The notes: generated by a model from the letters alone, not told the origin. Shown: positions 21,118 to 28,204, numbered from the stretch's first letter. The stretch: DNA of 40,443 nt from an uncultured Gammaproteobacteria bacterium (GCA_964613075.1 CAZTFV010000001.1:23521-63963); one strand, 5' to 3'. Translations and numbers: made by a program.

Positions 21118-21124
21118 AATTGTT

Positions 21125-21148
21125 TAAAAAAACTCCGTCTTTCGGAGT
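21125..21148 (-). terminator. possible intrinsic terminator downstream of the toxin gene, just upstream of the fusA start
   Basis: The minus strand reads ACTCCG-AAAGA-CGGAGT followed by a T-run (the A-run at 21126-21131 on the plus strand). The stem is only 6 bp. Confidence 0.35.
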
Positions 21149-21249
21149 GAAAATCAGTATAGCACATTTCCCGCACGGTTTCTATATAGAAAACGAGCTC
21201 GTAAACTTAAAGTTCATGCTTTTTCTTCTGCGACATAGGATATCAAGAA

Positions 21250-21549
21250 TTACTTTCCTCCATAGAGATTTTCATGTGTCCCAAGCATATGAAAGATAAT
21301 AATTTTTTGCTTCCCTGTATGTTTTTCTTTAAATACTGCCCGCCAATCGTCTGTCACGTCAATACTTCTATATCCTGCAAGTTTTTCTCTCAATTGGTGG
21401 TTTCTAAGCGATGAATGATTGGAGTCTTCGAGAAACATCTCAAGAGTTTGTGCAAAAGCTGTTTTAATTTTTTTGTCTGCTTTTGAATATTGTTCTCTAA
21501 ATCTCGTCCCGTACTTTATCTCCGTTTGCATAGGAAGCGTTTGGGTCAT
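21250..21549 (-). CDS. type II toxin, RelE/ParE superfamily
   Basis: 99 aa. FREQYSKADKKIKTAFAQTLEMFLEDSNHSSLRNHQLREKLAGYRSIDVTDDWRAVFKE...IIIFHMLGTHENLY is the typical RelE/ParE-fold pattern. Lies downstream of, and overlapping, an RHH antitoxin gene. Confidence 0.8.
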   Translation of the reverse strand: MTQTLPMQTEIKYGTRFREQYSKADKKIKTAFAQTLEMFLEDSNHSSLRNHQLREKLAGYRSIDVTDDWRAVFKEKHTGKQKIIIFHMLGTHENLYGGK

Positions 21550-21817
21550 CTAGCCAGGCTATTGCATCTTTTGCATTCGTAAAAGTGGGTGACACTTTCC
21601 CAGCTTTTACATCCTCCTCTGATTTTCTCAGTGATTCAATCATATATTCATTTGGTTCCTCCATTTCAGCACTAAAGGTGATAGTTCTTGTCCTGCTGAA
21701 TTGTTTTAAGAACCCCTTGATGATGACGCTTAAGGGCATACCAAGCGCCTCAGCTGCCTCCTGCGCTTGTTTTTTCTCTTCCGGTTTTACTTTGATGTTT
21801 ATGATTGCTGTATCCAT
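21497..21817 (-). CDS. type II antitoxin, RelB/DinJ (ribbon-helix-helix) family
   Basis: 106 aa. The N-terminus INIKVKPEEKKQAQEAAEALGMPLSVIIKGFLKQF is RHH-like. It is paired with the toxin. Confidence 0.78.
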   Translation of the reverse strand: MDTAIINIKVKPEEKKQAQEAAEALGMPLSVIIKGFLKQFSRTRTITFSAEMEEPNEYMIESLRKSEEDVKAGKVSPTFTNAKDAIAWLDDPNASYANGDKVRDEI

Positions 21818-22066: not shown

Positions 22067-22109
22067 TTGCGACAGTTGAGACTTCTCATTTTGCGACAAT
22101 TGAGATTTC
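22067..22109 (+). promoter_or_regulatory. two direct repeats (TTGCGACArTTGAGAyTTC) with 24-bp period just upstream of the first GC-rich cassette
   Basis: 22067-22085 ttgcgacagttgagacttc and 22091-22109 ttgcgacaattgagatttc are 17/19 identical. A TTGTCA-N17/18-(C)ATATAAG promoter-like string lies at 22032-22062. Confidence 0.4.
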
Positions 22110-22132
22110 CGTTCACACTAGAATCTCCCTAC

Positions 22133-22594
22133 ATGACCGAAGCCGCCAGACCGTTAGACCAGGACCAAGCAAGCCTTGCTGCCTCCTGGGATATGTCCGC
22201 TCTCTCATGGTCGCTGGATGTCGCGGCCGAGGCCCGCATCGACGTCGCCCACGGCGAGGGTGTCGCTTACCGCCTCGGCCCCGGGCCGGGGACGCTCCTC
22301 GAGCTCTTCCCCGCCACGGGAACGGTCCGACTCACCGGGCAAGACGTGCAGCTGACCCTGTTTCGCCAGGACCCGCCCCGGCTCGCGGACGAAGGCCTGG
22401 TCTTCGAGCTTGCCACCGAGCCCCGCCGGCGCTGGCTCTCCGTCTCCCCCACCACCGGCGAGGTCTTGCTCTTCTACGACCCATCGGTCGGAGAAGCCGT
22501 CTGCGCCCCGGAAACGGCCCAGGACGCGTCGGAACCAGCCGAACGCCCCAAACCTCTGCACTGTAAATTTGCAAAATTTTGTTTAAAAATTTAG
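22133..22594 (+). CDS. hypothetical protein, cassette 0 (high-GC codon usage)
   Basis: The ATG at 22133 coincides with the AT-to-GC transition. Third codon positions are almost all G/C (gcc gcc ... gtc gcg gcc gag gcc cgc atc gac). The frame only closes at a TAG inside repeat A (22592-22594). No family recognised. Confidence 0.6.
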   Translation: MTEAARPLDQDQASLAASWDMSALSWSLDVAAEARIDVAHGEGVAYRLGPGPGTLLELFPATGTVRLTGQDVQLTLFRQDPPRLADEGLVFELATEPRRRWLSVSPTTGEVLLFYDPSVGEAVCAPETAQDASEPAERPKPLHCKFAKFCLKI

Positions 22595-22670
22595 CCTCAA
22601 AAAAAGTGAAAAATACTAATTTTTCAAAATTCTGAGGCTAAAAAAGTTCAACTTTTTTTGCAAATTTACA
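22562..22670 (+). repeat. cassette-array repeat copy A (109 bp, diverged, AT-rich interior)
   Basis: TGTAAATTTGCA...TGCAAATTTACA termini plus the inner boxes TTAGCCTCA (22591-22599) and TGAGGCTAA (22633-22641). Confidence 0.85.
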
Positions 22671-22986
22671 AGTTCCATGACGAGTTGCTCAAACGTTCCC
22701 ATTCCTTGCGTCCTCTCACAACTCGTTCCGCGCCAGGGTGGCTGGCCGGGCAGCCAGAGCGCTGGCCGGGGCTTGCGGTCAGTTCGCGAAGCCGACCCGG
22801 ACGAGGGAAGGAACCACAGGGGGCCCGAGCTGTCAAGAGGTATTGACGAATCCTGCAATCACTTGTTGCCAAAAACGCAACTAGATGTTGCAATTTCCGC
22901 AACCGGGTGGTAAGATCGACTTGGGTATGAGGGAGAGGGAAGGAGTAGGCGACATGCCGTTTCGGCACCAGCGATCAGATCCCCGG

Positions 22987-23283
22987 TCAGCGGCCACCGA
23001 GGCCGTGGTGGGGGTTGGTCTGGCCCCAGGTCTGAAACTCGCGCCGGAAGCGCAGGCGCTCTTCAACGGTGGGGTAAATTGGAGCCTGGCGGAACTTGAT
23101 CGACTCGTCGACCTCAAAGCGAGGAAGGGCGATCAAACCGCCATCGACGTTTCGCCCTGCACTCACGACGACCACCTGGTTCCCGGCAATCCTGATACGC
23201 ACGAAAGGCCAGGATAGCATTCTATGCACACCAGAGAACTGGAGGGAAACGGCAACGAGCCCATGAAGAGCGGGTATCGGCAT
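22987..23283 (-). CDS. hypothetical protein, cassette 1 (strand assignment tentative)
   Basis: 98-aa ORF. My hand count over the region shared with the antisense ORF 22885..23217 gives GC1/GC2/GC3 of about 66/47/75% for the minus frame. The plus frame gives 75/47/66%. GC3>GC1>GC2 is expected of a real high-GC gene and favours minus. No good SD is present. The start could instead be the internal MLSWPF. Confidence 0.4.
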   Translation of the reverse strand: MPIPALHGLVAVSLQFSGVHRMLSWPFVRIRIAGNQVVVVSAGRNVDGGLIALPRFEVDESIKFRQAPIYPTVEERLRFRREFQTWGQTNPHHGLGGR

Positions 23284-23383
23284 GCTCCATCACGATGAGA
23301 GAGCGAGGAGACGGATCAGACATGTCCCTTCCAAACGACGACCCGTCGCCTGATCAGCCAATGATGGCGATACGGCTGAGGAT

Positions 23384-23485
23384 TGTAAGTTTGCACGATT
23401 TTCTTTGCACGAATTAGCCTCACATGATCAAACGCTTTGCAAAGTTTGAGGCTGAGATATGCAAAATAGTTCGTGCAAACTTACA
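23384..23485 (+). repeat. cassette-array repeat copy B (102 bp, consensus)
   Basis: tgtaagtttgcacgattttctttgcacgaattagcctcacatgatcaaacgctttgcaaagtttgaggctgagatatgcaaaatagttcgtgcaaacttaca. Confidence 0.95.
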
Positions 23486-23578
23486 ATTCTACACCCTGAC
23501 CCCCTTTCGAGACACCATCTAAGACCGCTGAGCAGCGCCGGCGGGTGGACCTCAGCGCGCGTACCAGGCGTACCCCTT

Positions 23579-23968
23579 CTACCGCGCCCGGCGCGGGGGC
23601 AACGGCCGGCTGCCCGCCTCCGCGCATGGCTCGCGCGGAGCGAGCGCGGGCGCATGAAGGCGATCGACCTCTCTGATCAAGGCACGTAATTGGTCAACGG
23701 TTTCCAATAATCGCAGGCCATCGCTGAAGTTCTCGTCTCCGGCCATCACGTATTCCATCCCTTCTGGAACAGTGCTTTGGAGGTCGACCATATTCTCGTA
23801 CTGCTCTCCAGCTCGTGCCAAAACCCGAACGTCAACACCGCTCATGGCCGCAGCATATCTGAATATAATCGAGTCCTCACCCGTCGATACGAGGATCGTC
23901 ACTGGCCCCTTGGTCGCTTCTTGTTCATTCTCTAGTAGAGACAGGAGCCGGTTCTTTTCGGCGTTCAT
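23579..23968 (-). CDS. hypothetical protein, cassette 2
   Basis: 129 aa. A strong SD, AAGGAGGTGA (23985->23976), lies 7 nt upstream of the ATG at 23968. A TATAAT box and the palindrome GTGTATTATACAC (24032-24044) are upstream. No family recognised. Confidence 0.65.
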   Translation of the reverse strand: MNAEKNRLLSLLENEQEATKGPVTILVSTGEDSIIFRYAAAMSGVDVRVLARAGEQYENMVDLQSTVPEGMEYVMAGDENFSDGLRLLETVDQLRALIREVDRLHAPALAPREPCAEAGSRPLPPRRAR

Positions 23969-24214
23969 CTCTTCCTCACCTCCTTTCCGGGCAGGTCAGG
24001 CGATCGCGTCGGCAACGCACAGATCGTCCGAGTGTATTATACACTTTATGTCAACACGATCGCGGCGCGGCGGCAGGAGTTGCGGCCCCGGAGACGCGGC
24101 GGCGCTCCGTGCAGCCAGGCGGCAGCAAGGCGAGACCATGAGACTCCCTCCCCTTCCCCTCCTGGTGCCGACTGCGCCGACGGGACGGTGCGCCGGGTCG
24201 GCGAGCCGTTTGCG

Positions 24215-24316
24215 TGTAAGTTTGCACGAACTATTTTGCATATCTCAGCCTCAAACTTTGCAAAGCGTTTGATCATGTGAGGCTAATTCGTGCAAAGAAA
24301 ATCGTGCAAACTTACA
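24215..24316 (-). repeat. cassette-array repeat copy C (102 bp, consensus, reverse orientation)
   Basis: By my reading, the reverse complement of 24215-24316 is identical to copies B, D and E. Confidence 0.95.
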
Positions 24317-24653
24317 ACTCTCGGCATCGAACTGGAACAGGAAAGGCCTGACGAATCGGTATCCGTCCATCCTGTCGCTCTCTCTGGGCTTCCAAGAGGC
24401 GAAACAACCAAAAGCTGACAAATCCGGGTCAAGTGCCGGAAGGATACTTGATCCCGTATATTGGCACTTCCCCCGCTGCGTTCCGTGATCCTCCCCTCGA
24501 CCAGCGGCACGGCGGTAGTCGAGCAGCACAACGAGTTGGTCACCGGCCGAGTGATCCGTTCGGGAGGGGGCGGATCGGAACGAGAGCTGGCGACACACTT
24601 CATCTTCACCACAATTTGACAATTTACTCAATTTATGATATACGACATATGAT

Positions 24654-25055
24654 ATGGATATAGAAGCAAAATTTGTTTCAAATAGACTAGATTTCAAATC
24701 ATTTCTCTATCATCACCATGAAGCTATTCCGAGAATCCCTGAACAACCTTCCGCTCACACCGCGCCGGAGGGTGGAGGTCGTGGCGAGGCGCGCTCCCCT
24801 CAGCCGGAGCGAGTAACTGATCCCGTGGCCAATCCGGATCGAGCTCGGCTGGAGGCGTTCCTGACCCCGGGGGTGGTAAGCGGTACTGTTGAGTGGGAAA
24901 CGACAATGGGGAGCTATGAAATTGACTTTGATACTCGAGATGAACCCGGAAACCCATCAAAGTACTTTTATCCGAAAGATCAGATAGTTTTCGATAATAG
25001 TTTATATTCATCTCGCCATCAATCTGATTTATCACAACGTCAACTAGGTGAGTAA
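24654..25055 (+). CDS. hypothetical protein, cassette 3 (weak call)
   Basis: 133-aa ORF downstream of an AT-rich promoter-like stretch (TTGACA in the 24610s, then a 17-nt spacer, then TATACG). The C-terminal half (SYEIDFDTRDEPGNPSKYFYPKDQIVFDNSLY) looks protein-like. The N-terminal half has mixed composition. Confidence 0.3.
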   Translation: MDIEAKFVSNRLDFKSFLYHHHEAIPRIPEQPSAHTAPEGGGRGEARSPQPERVTDPVANPDRARLEAFLTPGVVSGTVEWETTMGSYEIDFDTRDEPGNPSKYFYPKDQIVFDNSLYSSRHQSDLSQRQLGE

Positions 25056-25259
25056 TCCCGCGAGCACCGCGTGTTCCCACCCCGTCATTCGGTTAATCAT
25101 CGGATCCCGATTAGCTCCGGGCTGGTCGTCTAGCACCTGTTTGTGGACGAACTAGCCATTACCCGGCGCAGAAGGGGTCTTGGTTCCCGTAACGGCCCTT
25201 CTCGCTATCATCTTCCCTAAATTCACGCTTATTCGTCAATGTTTGCGGTTCCAAGTAAG

Positions 25260-25361
25260 TGTAAGTTTGCACGATTTTCTTTGCACGAATTAGCCTCACA
25301 TGATCAAACGCTTTGCAAAGTTTGAGGCTGAGATATGCAAAATAGTTCGTGCAAACTTACA
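25260..25361 (+). repeat. cassette-array repeat copy D (102 bp, consensus)
   Basis: Identical to copy B. Confidence 0.95.
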
Positions 25362-25675
25362 CAACGCTAAGGAACAGAACTATCTGCTCTACCTGGCGGG
25401 CCGGCTCCCGCCGCCGCTCTCAAGACTCCAGTTAACCATGGATGAACTGGGGTATGTCTTCGATATGGTTGGCATTCTCATAGATAATTTGCGTTTAAGG
25501 TATAAATCTAAAGATATTTAACGAAACTACAATCAATGAAAAGATTGACAAATTAGTCAACACTGTGCTACCCTCCACGAGGGGTCGGCGTCATTGACCT
25601 GCTGACCAAGCCGTTCCTAATCCAACCGTGTCACGTCAAGGGGGCACCCGCCTGACCAGACCTGGAGGAGACAGG

Positions 25676-26128
25676 ATGGAGCCACAGCAGGAAGGACAGA
25701 CGACCACCAGCACGATGAGGCAACCAGAGACCAGCCCGGACGGCTCCGTTGCCGGTTCGGACCTTACCCGCTTATCCAAACGGCTCAATACTCGCCGCCG
25801 TACGGCGGCGAAGGAGCAGATCGAGGGCGTGTTCACGCAGTATCTGCAGGAGGTGCAGGCGCTGGGCATCGTCTCTGAGATCCTGGTCGGGTCCAAAGCC
25901 CACGCGCCAGGCGCTTACCTCTGGAACGTGTTCGCCGAAGACTTCCGCGTGGAGCAGTGGGCCCGTCCCTCGTTTGCCGAGCTCAACCGGCTCACCTACC
26001 GTCTCGAGCAGGACTTACCCAAGGGCCTCTCGCTTCGCATCGCCCACGTGAACCCTTGCGACCTCGCCCAGGTCCGAGAGCGCTGTGACCAACAGCAGAT
26101 CGAGACCGAGCTCATCCCCCTGCGCTGA
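25676..26128 (+). CDS. hypothetical protein, cassette 4
   Basis: 150 aa from the ATG at 25676, preceded by GGAGGAG with a 5-nt gap. GC3 is high throughout. The palindrome TTGACaaattaGTCAA (25545-25560) lies upstream. The stop is 16 nt before repeat E. No family recognised. Confidence 0.65.
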   Translation: MEPQQEGQTTTSTMRQPETSPDGSVAGSDLTRLSKRLNTRRRTAAKEQIEGVFTQYLQEVQALGIVSEILVGSKAHAPGAYLWNVFAEDFRVEQWARPSFAELNRLTYRLEQDLPKGLSLRIAHVNPCDLAQVRERCDQQQIETELIPLR

Positions 26129-26144
26129 TGATGGACGCCCTCGT

Positions 26145-26246
26145 TGTAAGTTTGCACGATTTTCTTTGCACGAATTAGCCTCACATGATCAAACGCTTTG
26201 CAAAGTTTGAGGCTGAGATATGCAAAATAGTTCGTGCAAACTTACA
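26145..26246 (+). repeat. cassette-array repeat copy E (102 bp, consensus)
   Basis: Identical to copy B. Confidence 0.95.
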
Positions 26247-26650
26247 CAGTCATTGCTCATTATTTTCTCAGATGCTTCCAAGGCCTTGCGTTCTATCTCG
26301 TCATCATCTTCGTCGTCATCATCACCGGCAAATTCTTCGAACGAGAGATCCATCTTCATGTTGTCGGTTTCCCAAGATCTTCCGCTGAAGCTGCGAAGTG
26401 CGCGTGGGGTATCGGAATAGGAAGAGGCCATCTCCGTCATGATCAGAGAAAGCCTCCACGTCATTTGTTCATAGTATCGAGCCGGAGAAAATTCCATGAG
26501 GTTCGAGTAGGCGAGACGATGTCCAAACATCTTTCGTATGTCGTACTCCATCGTTCTTGTTTCTACCCACTCCAAAATCTGATCGTTGGTCAGAGAGTGA
26601 TTGTTGGTCACAAATTCGACCAGATCGTCACATCGGTCCTTGCTCGCCAT
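26189..26650 (-). CDS. hypothetical acidic protein, cassette 5
   Basis: The ATG at 26650 (MASKDRCDDLVEF...) lies 2 nt from repeat F. There is a DDDDEDDDE run near the C-terminus. The frame closes only inside repeat E, adding the tail SLHELFCISQPQTLQSV. No family recognised. Confidence 0.6.
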   Translation of the reverse strand: MASKDRCDDLVEFVTNNHSLTNDQILEWVETRTMEYDIRKMFGHRLAYSNLMEFSPARYYEQMTWRLSLIMTEMASSYSDTPRALRSFSGRSWETDNMKMDLSFEEFAGDDDDEDDDEIERKALEASEKIMSNDCVSLHELFCISQPQTLQSV

Positions 26651-26652
26651 GG

Positions 26653-26764
26653 TGTAAGTTTGCAACGAAATTTTACACCTAAAGTTGCAAGAATTTTACT
26701 GTCTTAGCCTCAAAAGTGTAAAATTCCTGCAAATAAAACAGTAAAATAATCGTGCAAATTTACA
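26653..26764 (-). repeat. cassette-array repeat copy F (112 bp, diverged; orientation tentative)
   Basis: It has the termini TGTAAGTTTGCA...CGTGCAAATTTACA. Its reverse complement begins tgtaaatttgcacgatt, matching 16/17 of the consensus left arm. It carries only one inner box (ttagcctca at 26704-26712). Confidence 0.75.
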
Positions 26765-27035
26765 CTTACACGAGCCAGACGAAGCAGAATGGGGAAAAGG
26801 TTTTAAAACAAGGAGGAAAAACTACAGTATCTTGCACCTGACACGATCGATACCATTCAAGAGACTATCGAAGCCGGTAAAGAACCGAGAAAGACAACTG
26901 AGGTACCAGTATACCAATTTCCTTCTTAGACTACCTCATCTATCACCTATTTTATTGCCTCTCTTTTTTTGACAAAAAGTCCCAAACCTCATAGACTGGA
27001 CTTAGGCCTATCAATTCACATAGGTCTTTATTGCT

Positions 27036-27584
27036 ATGGCAACACACAATGCAATCAATCTCGTACGGGGACAAGACAAAAGATTTTTTGACAAACTTAT
27101 CGGTTGGGCATTCACCGTCGGACGGGTACTTGTCATCTTCACCGAGTCAATCGCCCTGATGGCATTTCTCTATCGCTTCTCATTAGATTACCGGCTCATT
27201 GATCTTCGCGATGAAATAAAAGACAGGCAAACAATCGTCTCGCTCCTCAAAGAAAGTGAAGCCACGTATCGCAACCTGCAAGCTCGTCTTGCCTACGCTT
27301 CACAAATAGAAAAGCAAAAAGAGCAAACGCCAAAAACCCTTGCCGATCTTGTAAAAATGGCAACCGGCAAACTCGTCTTCAATAGTCTGACAGTGAACCA
27401 AAATACCATCCAGATAGATGCCAACGCGCCATCAGTAAGTAGTCTGAGTAGCTTTATCAACCAACTTAAAAAATATCCGACTGTTAAGACAGTCAGTATC
27501 GACAGAATTGAAAATAAAGGCTCAATCGCAACGATTAACATTTCAATCACGGCAACATTGGAAAATGCCGACACTGCCAAATGA
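27036..27584 (+). CDS. pilN: type IV pilus assembly protein PilN-like
   Basis: 182 aa with a short cytoplasmic N-terminus, a single TM (VGRVLVIFTESIALMAFLY), a coiled-coil and a C-terminal alpha/beta domain. It is followed by a PilO-like gene with a 4-nt overlap. Confidence 0.6.
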   Translation: MATHNAINLVRGQDKRFFDKLIGWAFTVGRVLVIFTESIALMAFLYRFSLDYRLIDLRDEIKDRQTIVSLLKESEATYRNLQARLAYASQIEKQKEQTPKTLADLVKMATGKLVFNSLTVNQNTIQIDANAPSVSSLSSFINQLKKYPTVKTVSIDRIENKGSIATINISITATLENADTAK

Positions 27585-28204
27585 AATTTACTACAAACCG
27601 ATTACAAACAATTGCCAAAAAGCGCTACCTGGAATATATCAAATTGTTTCCCGCCGCAGCGCAAACGCGTATCAAAGAGTATACAACGCTTATTCTCACC
27701 TTTGGCGCCATGACACTTTTTGGCATCTTTGCCATAAACCCAACAATAACAACAGTCATAGAACTGCGGAAAAAATTGGATGACGCCAAATTCGTCAACC
27801 AAAAACTAGCGCAAAAAATCGCCAACCTCACAACGCTTGAGGAAAAATACAGCAACCTGGATGATGACCTGACTGTTATCGAAAACGCCATTCCCAGGCA
27901 ACCGGAAGTACCGCTTCTTTTCGGACAAATTCAGGCAATTGCAAAAAAGTCTGGGGTCACAATTGCCTCCCTACAAAGCCTGCAGGTTGAGCAAGCAACG
28001 CAGAAAAAACCACCTCCCAAAGACGCATCATTTACATTCGTCACTGAAATACAGGGAAACTATCAACAAATAAGTAGCTTTCTTAACTTCTTAAGTGACT
28101 TTGAACGAAGCATCATACTTGACTCTGTCTCAATCACAAGAAGCAAAGACCAGGTAAATCAGCTTGTTCTATCAATCAGAGCCAGAGCGCCATTTCGGCA
28201 ATAA
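27581..28204 (+). CDS. pilO: type IV pilus assembly protein PilO-like
   Basis: 207 aa with a single TM, a coiled-coil (LRKKLDDAKFVNQKLAQKIANLTTLEEKY) and a ferredoxin-like C-terminus (FTFVTEIQGNYQQISSFLNFLSDFER). Confidence 0.6.
   Translation: MKFTTNRLQTIAKKRYLEYIKLFPAAAQTRIKEYTTLILTFGAMTLFGIFAINPTITTVIELRKKLDDAKFVNQKLAQKIANLTTLEEKYSNLDDDLTVIENAIPRQPEVPLLFGQIQAIAKKSGVTIASLQSLQVEQATQKKPPPKDASFTFVTEIQGNYQQISSFLNFLSDFERSIILDSVSITRSKDQVNQLVLSIRARAPFRQ

Follow-up and report, generated by a model that had tools for sequence, protein, structure and literature searches.

A gene-less 102-nt repeat at junctions of foreign DNA may combine two IS21-family-type ends

Transposition of IS21 makes target duplications of 4–8 bp, and abutted right and left ends, forming a 'reactive junction', are known from IS21 tandems. 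The ends of IS21 are about 55 bp long; IstA requires two direct repeats at each end, each repeat contains two conserved blocks placed one helical turn apart, and IstA is able to use two like ends (PMC10122671). In IS5376 the ends measured 53–54 bp, with the termini TGTTAA and TGTCAA, GCCG boxes at positions 8 and 30–32, and CCCCA boxes at positions 21–22 and 44–45. An IS21-family element of Priestia had the same layout, with TGTAAT and TGTCAA starts. We compared these ends with a short repeat that is clustered in the window, that is, the whole 40,443-nt stretch of DNA that was analysed, which belongs to a CPR-like bacterium with a small genome.

A repeat search and an nhmmer family profile agreed on six copies in the 40 kb. 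Copy D (25260–25361, plus strand) is the consensus 102-nt element, and copies B (23384–23485, plus strand) and E (26145–26246, plus strand) were identical to it over 102 nt, as was copy C, which is inverted (24215–24316, minus strand). Copy A was a diverged element of 109 nt and 21% GC (22562–22670, plus strand), and copy F was a diverged element of 112 nt (26653–26764). The copies lie 0.4–0.9 kb apart between 22.5 and 26.8 kb and form a 4.2-kb island, in which the DNA between copies peaks at 55–75% GC and the flanks have ~38–47% GC. All copies start with TGT and end with ACA, with CA at the 3' tips as in IS21-family ends.

The internal architecture that had been claimed for copy D was recovered in full. 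Its 14-nt termini pair perfectly, TGTAAGTTTGCACG (25260–25273) being the exact reverse complement of 25348–25361, and the perfect terminal inverted repeats measured 14–15 bp. The inner box TTAGCCTCA (25290–25298) pairs with TGAGGCTGA (25323–25331) at eight of nine positions, and the centre holds the perfect palindrome CTTTGCAAAG (25311–25320). The octamer TTGCACGA occurs at offsets 8 and 22 and is mirrored by TCGTGCAA at offset 88 and ATATGCAA at offset 74. TGCA was found five times, at offsets 9, 23, 55, 77 and 91, against 0.44 occurrences per 102 nt expected from the window average. The whole element is non-coding and has no ORF over its 102 nt. Counting interior TGCA only, nine family members held 19, compared with 1.95 ± 1.4 in shuffled sequences (maximum 7 in 1000 shuffles), and chance is excluded as the source of the box pattern. 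The claim that the diverged copies A and F keep the termini and the inner box around changed interiors was borne out for the divergence of the interiors, but in copy F a single TAGCCTCA remains and the partner TGAGGCT is missing; the inner stems of F are built from sequences other than TAGCCTCA/TGAGGCT. Copy A retains only two TGCA, both terminal.

We searched species-representative genomes and metagenomes with a pattern built from the termini. The family recovered consists of AT-rich, near-palindromic elements of about 90–112 nt in CPR-like and Chloroflexota contigs (loci cited below by L numbers). Common to them are TGTAARTTTGCA at the termini, the box TAGCCTCA/TGAGGCTA and TTTGCAAA in the centre. 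The search pattern predetermined the ends of the family alignment, yet the identity of copies B to E ends exactly there. The inner box and central TTTGCAAA, which lie outside the search pattern, were kept in copies elsewhere, as the original prediction had anticipated. Core family members measured about 91–112 nt, and their GC content was 20–38% regardless of that of the contig (30–63%). Copy A was 95% identical to the element in L001, a syntenic locus where the element follows istB and abuts host DNA on the pilN side. Copy F matched the L031 element at 87% identity; that element, too, is placed between AT-rich host DNA and GC-richer DNA. Members were also present in contigs binned as Ktedonobacteraceae and Thermomicrobia, where the neighbouring genes were mobile-element genes (ArdC, a PIN toxin and a truncated rve transposase).

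Pattern matches in L002, L003, L009, L017 and L024 were set aside as not belonging to the family, and some matches with GC-rich interiors were judged unrelated. Near-palindromic 12-mers, TGYAARYTTRCA, formed iteron-like arrays with a period of 21–22 bp in unrelated contigs (L008 492–650, L026 1320–1550, L022 3950–4300); these were not counted with the hairpin family. A scan of viral contigs gave one unrelated 114-nt variant, and plasmid BLAST with copy D gave no match. The same 12-nt termini were seen around perfect or near-perfect palindromic interiors, with a stem of up to 50 bp, at L011 1034–1153, L025 1107–1210 and L030 1–104, and in L011 and L025 the palindrome runs on into the flanks. 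These palindromes suggest that such elements have been born repeatedly by fold-back. At L033 300–497, a gap of 10 bp separates two members of the family, and the outer terminus of the first is missing.

Divided at its centre, copy D comprises a left arm (~25260–25310) and a right arm (~25311–25361). Counted from the tip, its arms have the TGT/ACA terminus, TGCA at 9 and 23, and AGCCT at 33; a TGCA at 45 occurs in the right arm only, the nearest one in the left arm being the central TGCA at offset 55. Across the family, TGCA was found at position 9, at 20–24 in about half of the arms and at 44–46 in about two thirds, and AGCCT at 32–33 in most; several subtypes lack the second box. The register of the arms is therefore 9 / 20–24 / 32–33 / 44–46, versus 8 / 21–22 / 30–32 / 44–45 in IS5376. 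Canonical ends repeat box 1 as box 3 and box 2 as box 4, whereas here three TTTGCA-like boxes accompany one AGCCTCA. Because the box sequences show no A-B-A-B repeat, the match is one of register and terminus and not of repeat logic. Of the readings first proposed for the repeat, the best fit is the one in which a protein binds a site made of several half-sites, given the TGCA/AGCCTCA register and the linkage to istA-istB.

This linkage was seen at L001, L021, L034–36, L037, L040 and L054, where istAB lies beside an element or an end. In L021 the element starts 19 nt after the istB stop, and istA and istB are a typical overlapping pair; in L034–36 an element of the TGTCAG type starts 7 nt after the istB stop; and in L001 the istB stop falls within the first bases of the element. 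The end motif AAAY(C)TTACA occurred in constant orientation 41–644 nt upstream of six of six istAB operons for which upstream sequence was available, and elsewhere in those ~68 kb, on both strands, only in element copies or ends. A strict hairpin search found nothing in L037 and L043–49, and relaxed inspection found the end motif only. The termini vary with the IstAB lineage (TGTAAG, TGTCAG, TGTAAA, TGTAAGATTTCA). The CPR IstA proteins were 33–34% identical to IS5376 IstA over the full length, and the nearest IstB relatives were named Daviesbacteria, Kerfeldbacteria, Vogelbacteria and Patescibacteria. At no locus was a complete istAB unit found with an element copy on both sides, and no canonical inverted repeats were found around seven CPR istAB loci. 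Since the element termini face the istAB genes, these genes lie outside the ends.

A Daviesbacteria contig, L040, contains five 90-nt elements that alternate with GC-rich segments, the last element ending 40 nt before istA. They read TGTAAGATTTCA...TGAAATCTTACA, have little in common with the core family beyond the termini, and were not detected by the family nhmmer profile. On either side of the second element lie two ~90-bp blocks (446–535 and 626–715) that are ~85% identical. Both blocks comprise the start and promoter of a Replic_Relax-like gene, and we take them as two paralogous copies broken at different points by elements.

Other features were observed near the istAB genes. In several CPR loci, a further gene of ParB_N-like, DndB-like or Fic/HTH type stands ahead of istA and reads in its direction (L043 304–1230, L044 209–1297, L048 84–1082, L034 3–878). 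Canonical IS21 elements have no such gene before istA. A non-coding, GC-richer block was 73% identical between L047 (1266–1479, 5' of istA) and L001 (1–206, 5' of a solo istB). Rfam gave only a weak, manA-like match to it, below threshold, and the block could represent an RNA that accompanies such istAB units.

The flanks of the window encode EF-G, ribosomal proteins and type IV pilus proteins, and a YafQ/RelB-type toxin-antitoxin pair (21250–21817, minus strand) lies between EF-G and the array, on the left of the island. In all four assemblies of a related organism (L056–59), whose EF-G falls in the same 90% cluster as that of the window, EF-G is 209 bp from pilN and the toxin-antitoxin pair is missing. 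The adjacency of EF-G and pilN in these relatives indicates that the toxin-antitoxin pair and the array together are an inserted island. To its right, a 141-bp tail (26765–26905) extends from copy F to the onset of homology with L001 host DNA (window position 26906), and pilN and pilO, which serve type IV pilus assembly, lie directly downstream of the island (27036–28204). In L047 the order is istA, istB, toxin-antitoxin pair and pilN, with no array; in L001 it is istB, one A-type element and pilN, and the homology of L001 to the window starts at the last base of the element. These two layouts mark the locus as a hot spot for such elements in this lineage. The L047 toxin-antitoxin pair is homologous to that of the window (68% nucleotide identity) and directly follows istB, and the pair seems to travel with these elements.

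Two observations concern the island's borders. To the left of the toxin gene, CTCGTAAACTTAAAG (21197–21213) resembles CTCGTAAACCTTACAAG, the element end upstream of istA in L047, and to judge from this likeness it may be a decayed element end at the left border. A weak, gapped direct repeat of ~50 nt from the EF-G upstream region (21123–21176 and 26802–26850) had a low alignment score; its two copies flank the whole island, toxin-antitoxin pair and array included. Tblastn with IstA and IstB found neither istA nor istB in the 40-kb window, no recombinase or transposase was found among the scanned window ORFs (about half of the larger ORFs, the rest lying in the ribosomal-protein region), and a tRNA scan of the window found none.

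The segments between the copies contain real coding sequence, though not neat cassettes. Segment c0 (22067–22561, plus strand, ~70% GC) encodes the N-terminal ~143 amino acids of a ~268-amino-acid SSB-domain protein, which is cut by copy A and whose C-terminal half is absent from the whole window. The best named relative of this protein was in a Thermomicrobiales genome, and no repeat is involved in the left junction of c0 with AT-rich DNA. Just 5' of the c0 ORF, an AT-rich stretch (22067–22109) holds two 19-nt direct repeats, TTGCGACAGTTGAGACTTC and TTGCGACAATTGAGATTTC, 5 nt apart, which look like an operator or a recombinase-binding site. Segment c1 (22671–23383) has ~60% GC and no Pfam match. 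In c2 (23486–24214, minus strand, ~55–75% GC), the ORF at 23579–23968 showed coding periodicity. Segment c3 (24317–25259, plus strand) is a mosaic of AT-rich and GC-rich DNA with an ORF at 24654–25055; because copy C is inverted, c3 has a left arm on each side. The ORF and both element junctions lie on ~1-kb Logan contigs from three runs (SRR12113383, SRR12113384, SRR12113420), so that three independent assemblies confirm the two left arms. Segment c4 (25362–26144, plus strand) has an ORF at 25676–26128 (GC2 0.44, GC3 0.81), for which a word-indexed search of 5.8 billion proteins found no homologue. The ORF of c5 (26247–26652, minus strand) starts at 26650, 2 nt from copy F, and reads without a stop into copy E; thus, it is a gene fragment. 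A promoter-like site within copy F (TTTACA, 18 nt, TAAAAT; 26722 to 26693, minus strand) points into c5. TTGACA hexamers resembling a −35 element precede the c3 and c4 ORFs and were not called by a consensus promoter scan. Pfam searches of the segment ORFs, including that of c2, returned no matches, and in BLAST and tblastx comparisons of the array with all fetched loci the elements matched and the segments never did.

The copies mark places where unrelated pieces of foreign DNA, often truncated, meet. No target-site duplication was found at any of 26 copies, nor across pairs of copies within arrays. The one match, 5 nt long, is that GTAAG to the left of D is the reverse complement of CTTAC to the right of F; it more likely reflects a duplicated terminal hexamer, as in L047. 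The lack of duplications, the truncated and unrelated flanks and the position of istAB outside the ends make simple insertion as a miniature transposon an unlikely route.

On balance, and with modest confidence, we favour the reading that the 102-nt repeat acts as DNA and consists of two complete ~51-bp ends of IS21-family type joined at their inner sides, which would make it a gene-less, non-autonomous fold-back element. That each arm corresponds to one IS21-type end is suggested by the box register and by the linkage to istAB. The TGCA boxes, the TAGCCTCA/TGAGGCTA box and the central palindrome would be the sites of a cognate IstA, the palindrome being the point where the innermost boxes of both arms meet. 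IstA, working with the ATPase IstB and supplied with it in trans, would bind and cut at these ends. Two ends in inverted orientation would yield hairpin potential as a by-product. Because two 51-bp ends without a spacer can hardly synapse as duplex, ends of different copies probably pair. The array could then arise by end-directed recombination or rearrangement, namely replicon fusion, adjacent deletion or inversion, or IS26-like exchange from copy to copy; such events would leave no duplications around single copies. Capture of an end-directed, IS26-like or integron-like kind may have built the array. A broader proposal is that fold-back elements and IstA/IstB make up a gene-capture platform of a DDE transposase and an AAA+ ATPase, analogous to integrons and IS26 units; this is speculative, and we consider it unlikely. 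Each unit would comprise a foreign segment and an element of ~100 bp; joining would take place at element ends and would not duplicate the target. Such a platform would gather DNA of other phyla in small-genome CPR bacteria (here Chloroflexota-like, possibly from a host or neighbour) at a hot spot that adjoins type IV pilus genes.

The alternative that we rank next is an integron-like system, in which a site-specific recombinase encoded elsewhere recombines the element in a folded, single-stranded form, the unit again being a segment plus an element. When both strands of copies A, D and F were folded, whether as DNA or RNA, the outcome was a long imperfect hairpin (z-scores −5.3 to −8.5). The internal loops are symmetric (5×5, 6×6), and dyad symmetry is kept across subfamilies that differ in their interiors: with the termini removed, the interiors of most members still folded far better than shuffles despite these differences. 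Integron-like too are the equal numbers of segments (c0–c5) and elements, six each, and the five elements and five units, including istAB, of L040; the position of elements where unrelated sequences meet, with no target duplications; the segment lengths of 0.4–0.9 kb; the lack of a homologue for c4 in the protein search; and the toxin-antitoxin pair beside the array, as in chromosomal integrons. However, RYYYAAC/GTTRRRY cores are absent, the termini being TGTAAGTTTGCA / TGCAAACTTACA. There are no extrahelical bases, and the two strands of D fold alike as single-stranded DNA (−24.6 and −25.2 kcal/mol), so that neither strand is marked. Copy C is inverted, and neither the scanned window ORFs nor the neighbours of copies elsewhere included a tyrosine or serine recombinase, so that the 40 kb yielded no integrase. 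The segments are fragments whose borders cut genes arbitrarily (c0, c5, L004, L040), several carry promoter-like sequences of their own, and L040-type copies show little pairing beyond their 12-nt termini. We therefore judge an integron-like system to be improbable. The earlier description of the repeat as a recombination site stands in a broad sense, for a site at the level of DNA where unrelated sequences join, and fails as regards likeness to attC.

The pattern of conserved stems and free loop, on which the attC comparison had been based, is real between subfamilies, but transposase-coevolving ends or a fold-back origin would give it too. Among close relatives, 20 pairs varied, of which none showed compensatory changes, three were half-compatible and 17 were pair-breaking; RNAalifold retained the terminal stem only. 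Between subfamilies, both-sided changes were found in the terminal helix. Since co-evolving inverted repeats also yield covariation at the termini, these changes lend no positive support to a selected RNA or single-strand fold.

A second alternative inverts the anatomy: the element would be the junction of tandem IS21-like units whose true ends meet at its centre, each unit comprising a right half, cargo and a left half. The geometry of istAB agrees with it. In IS5376, 92 bp separate the left terminus from istA and 60 bp separate the istB stop from the right terminus; in L040 the distance from the centre to istA is ~85 bp, and in L021 and L034 a half-element lies 7–19 nt after istB. At the centre of the L013/L021 and L015 subtypes, TTTGCA is followed after 5 nt by TGCAAA. 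Against this, c1 and c5 would receive mismatched ends, it is the outer termini that show conserved TGT...ACA, and the single central TGCA of D would force the ends to overlap. We rejected it because subtypes are inherited whole (A and L001; F and L031; L013 and L021; the L004–7/L012 group), because the array borders hold whole elements and no halves, and because the centre is invariant within a subtype, unlike a variable junction spacer. The chance that it is nonetheless correct is slim.

Poorer still is the proposal that the repeat is an operator or architectural site of a non-transposase protein, a structured RNA or a transcript-end hairpin that regulates or insulates flanking genes. The terminal 12-mer is itself near-palindromic, similar 12-mers form the iteron-like arrays of L008, L026 and L022, promoter-like sites occur in F, and as RNA the hairpin is very stable (−41 to −44 kcal/mol). 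Yet a structured RNA of ~100 nt, one of the readings first put forward, found no backing: Rfam, run at permissive thresholds on the array and at gathering thresholds on four related loci, returned nothing relevant in either, and compensatory changes were lacking in close relatives, as described above. A terminator role was rejected for want of a U-tract; the scan placed no terminator-like site inside any D-type copy, and the sole call touching one spans the left junction of copy C and reflects the near-palindromic terminal 12-mer. Moreover, orientation to genes varies and copies truncate genes, and a regulatory site leaves unexplained why copies lie at borders of foreign DNA and beside istAB. 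We regard it as very improbable.

Least credible is an assembly artefact, in which GC-rich contigs from other organisms were strung into a CPR contig through a repeat that several members of the community share: four identical copies leave the order and orientation of c2–c4 to the assembler, Logan contigs break within the repeat, L040 contains a run of N and the GC content of segments is far from that of the host, but c0 meets AT-rich, host-like DNA without a repeat, the unique subtypes A and F tie c0/c1 and c5 to the flanks, both flanks are genuine neighbours in relatives, both c3 junctions were reproduced in three runs, and even a chimeric path requires some genome with repeat-flanked segments, so that an artefact is unlikely to account for the essentials.

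If the paired-end reading is true, known complexes of IS21 transposases with DNA explain the inner anatomy of the repeat, and a family of very small IS21-type derivatives exists in CPR bacteria and Chloroflexota. The lack of duplications, the position at junctions of foreign fragments and the placement of istAB outside the ends suggest a reaction not yet described for IS21 enzymes, and a route by which bacteria with reduced genomes acquire DNA from other phyla.

Several known systems share some of these traits. The miniature inverted-repeat elements Correia/NEMIS, RUP and ERIC are likewise ~100 bp, non-coding, AT-rich, multi-copy and prone to form hairpins, with terminal inverted repeats, and like them the present elements would need a transposase in trans. 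Those elements, however, make target duplications, insert into continuous DNA and are dispersed, whereas ours lie clustered between unrelated gene fragments with no duplications. REPINs with their RAYT partners are also ~100-nt hairpin doublets of inverted units. They do not duplicate the target, and the gene that they flank derives from a transposase and is often present in single copy. In contrast to the present elements, REPINs are dispersed and intergenic and do not bracket foreign DNA, and their partner is a Y1 HUH transposase; no Y1 HUH (RAYT) domain was found in the scanned neighbours, where the recurrent partner was the DDE transposase IstA with the AAA+ protein IstB. The attC sites and Vibrio cholerae repeats are imperfect palindromes of ~100 nt, highly similar within an array, and they separate sub-kilobase segments whose products are mostly of unknown function, and a toxin-antitoxin pair lies close by; they differ in having cores, extrahelical bases, strand asymmetry and an integrase, and in carrying cassettes, where our array shows gene fragments and mixed orientation.

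Closer in overall arrangement are IS26 units and pseudo-compound arrays, in which a single shared copy of the element lies between segments without duplications (six copies here, five in L040), the genes are foreign and often truncated, and a DDE transposase is the presumed agent. IS26 is 820 bp long, encodes an IS6-family transposase and is arranged in direct orientation, whereas the present element has 102 bp, no ORF and one inverted copy, and the candidate for its enzyme is of IS21 type, with two proteins that would act in trans. We know of no conservative reaction of IstA. With IS21-family ends the likeness extends to TGT...ACA termini, a length of ~50–55 bp, several short boxes at ~8–9/21–24/30–33/44–46 separated by AT-rich spacers, and the adjoining istA-istB genes, their IstA related to that of IS5376. 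The differences are that two ends are here fused back to back, that the 4–8 bp duplication is missing, that istAB lies outside the ends with one copy nearby instead of one end on each side, and that the box sequences differ and form no A-B-A-B direct repeat. Identity with an attC site, a classical miniature inverted-repeat element, a REPIN or a known RNA was rejected in each case; the element functions most like a pair of IS21-family ends, minus the target duplication and the layout of genes inside the ends.
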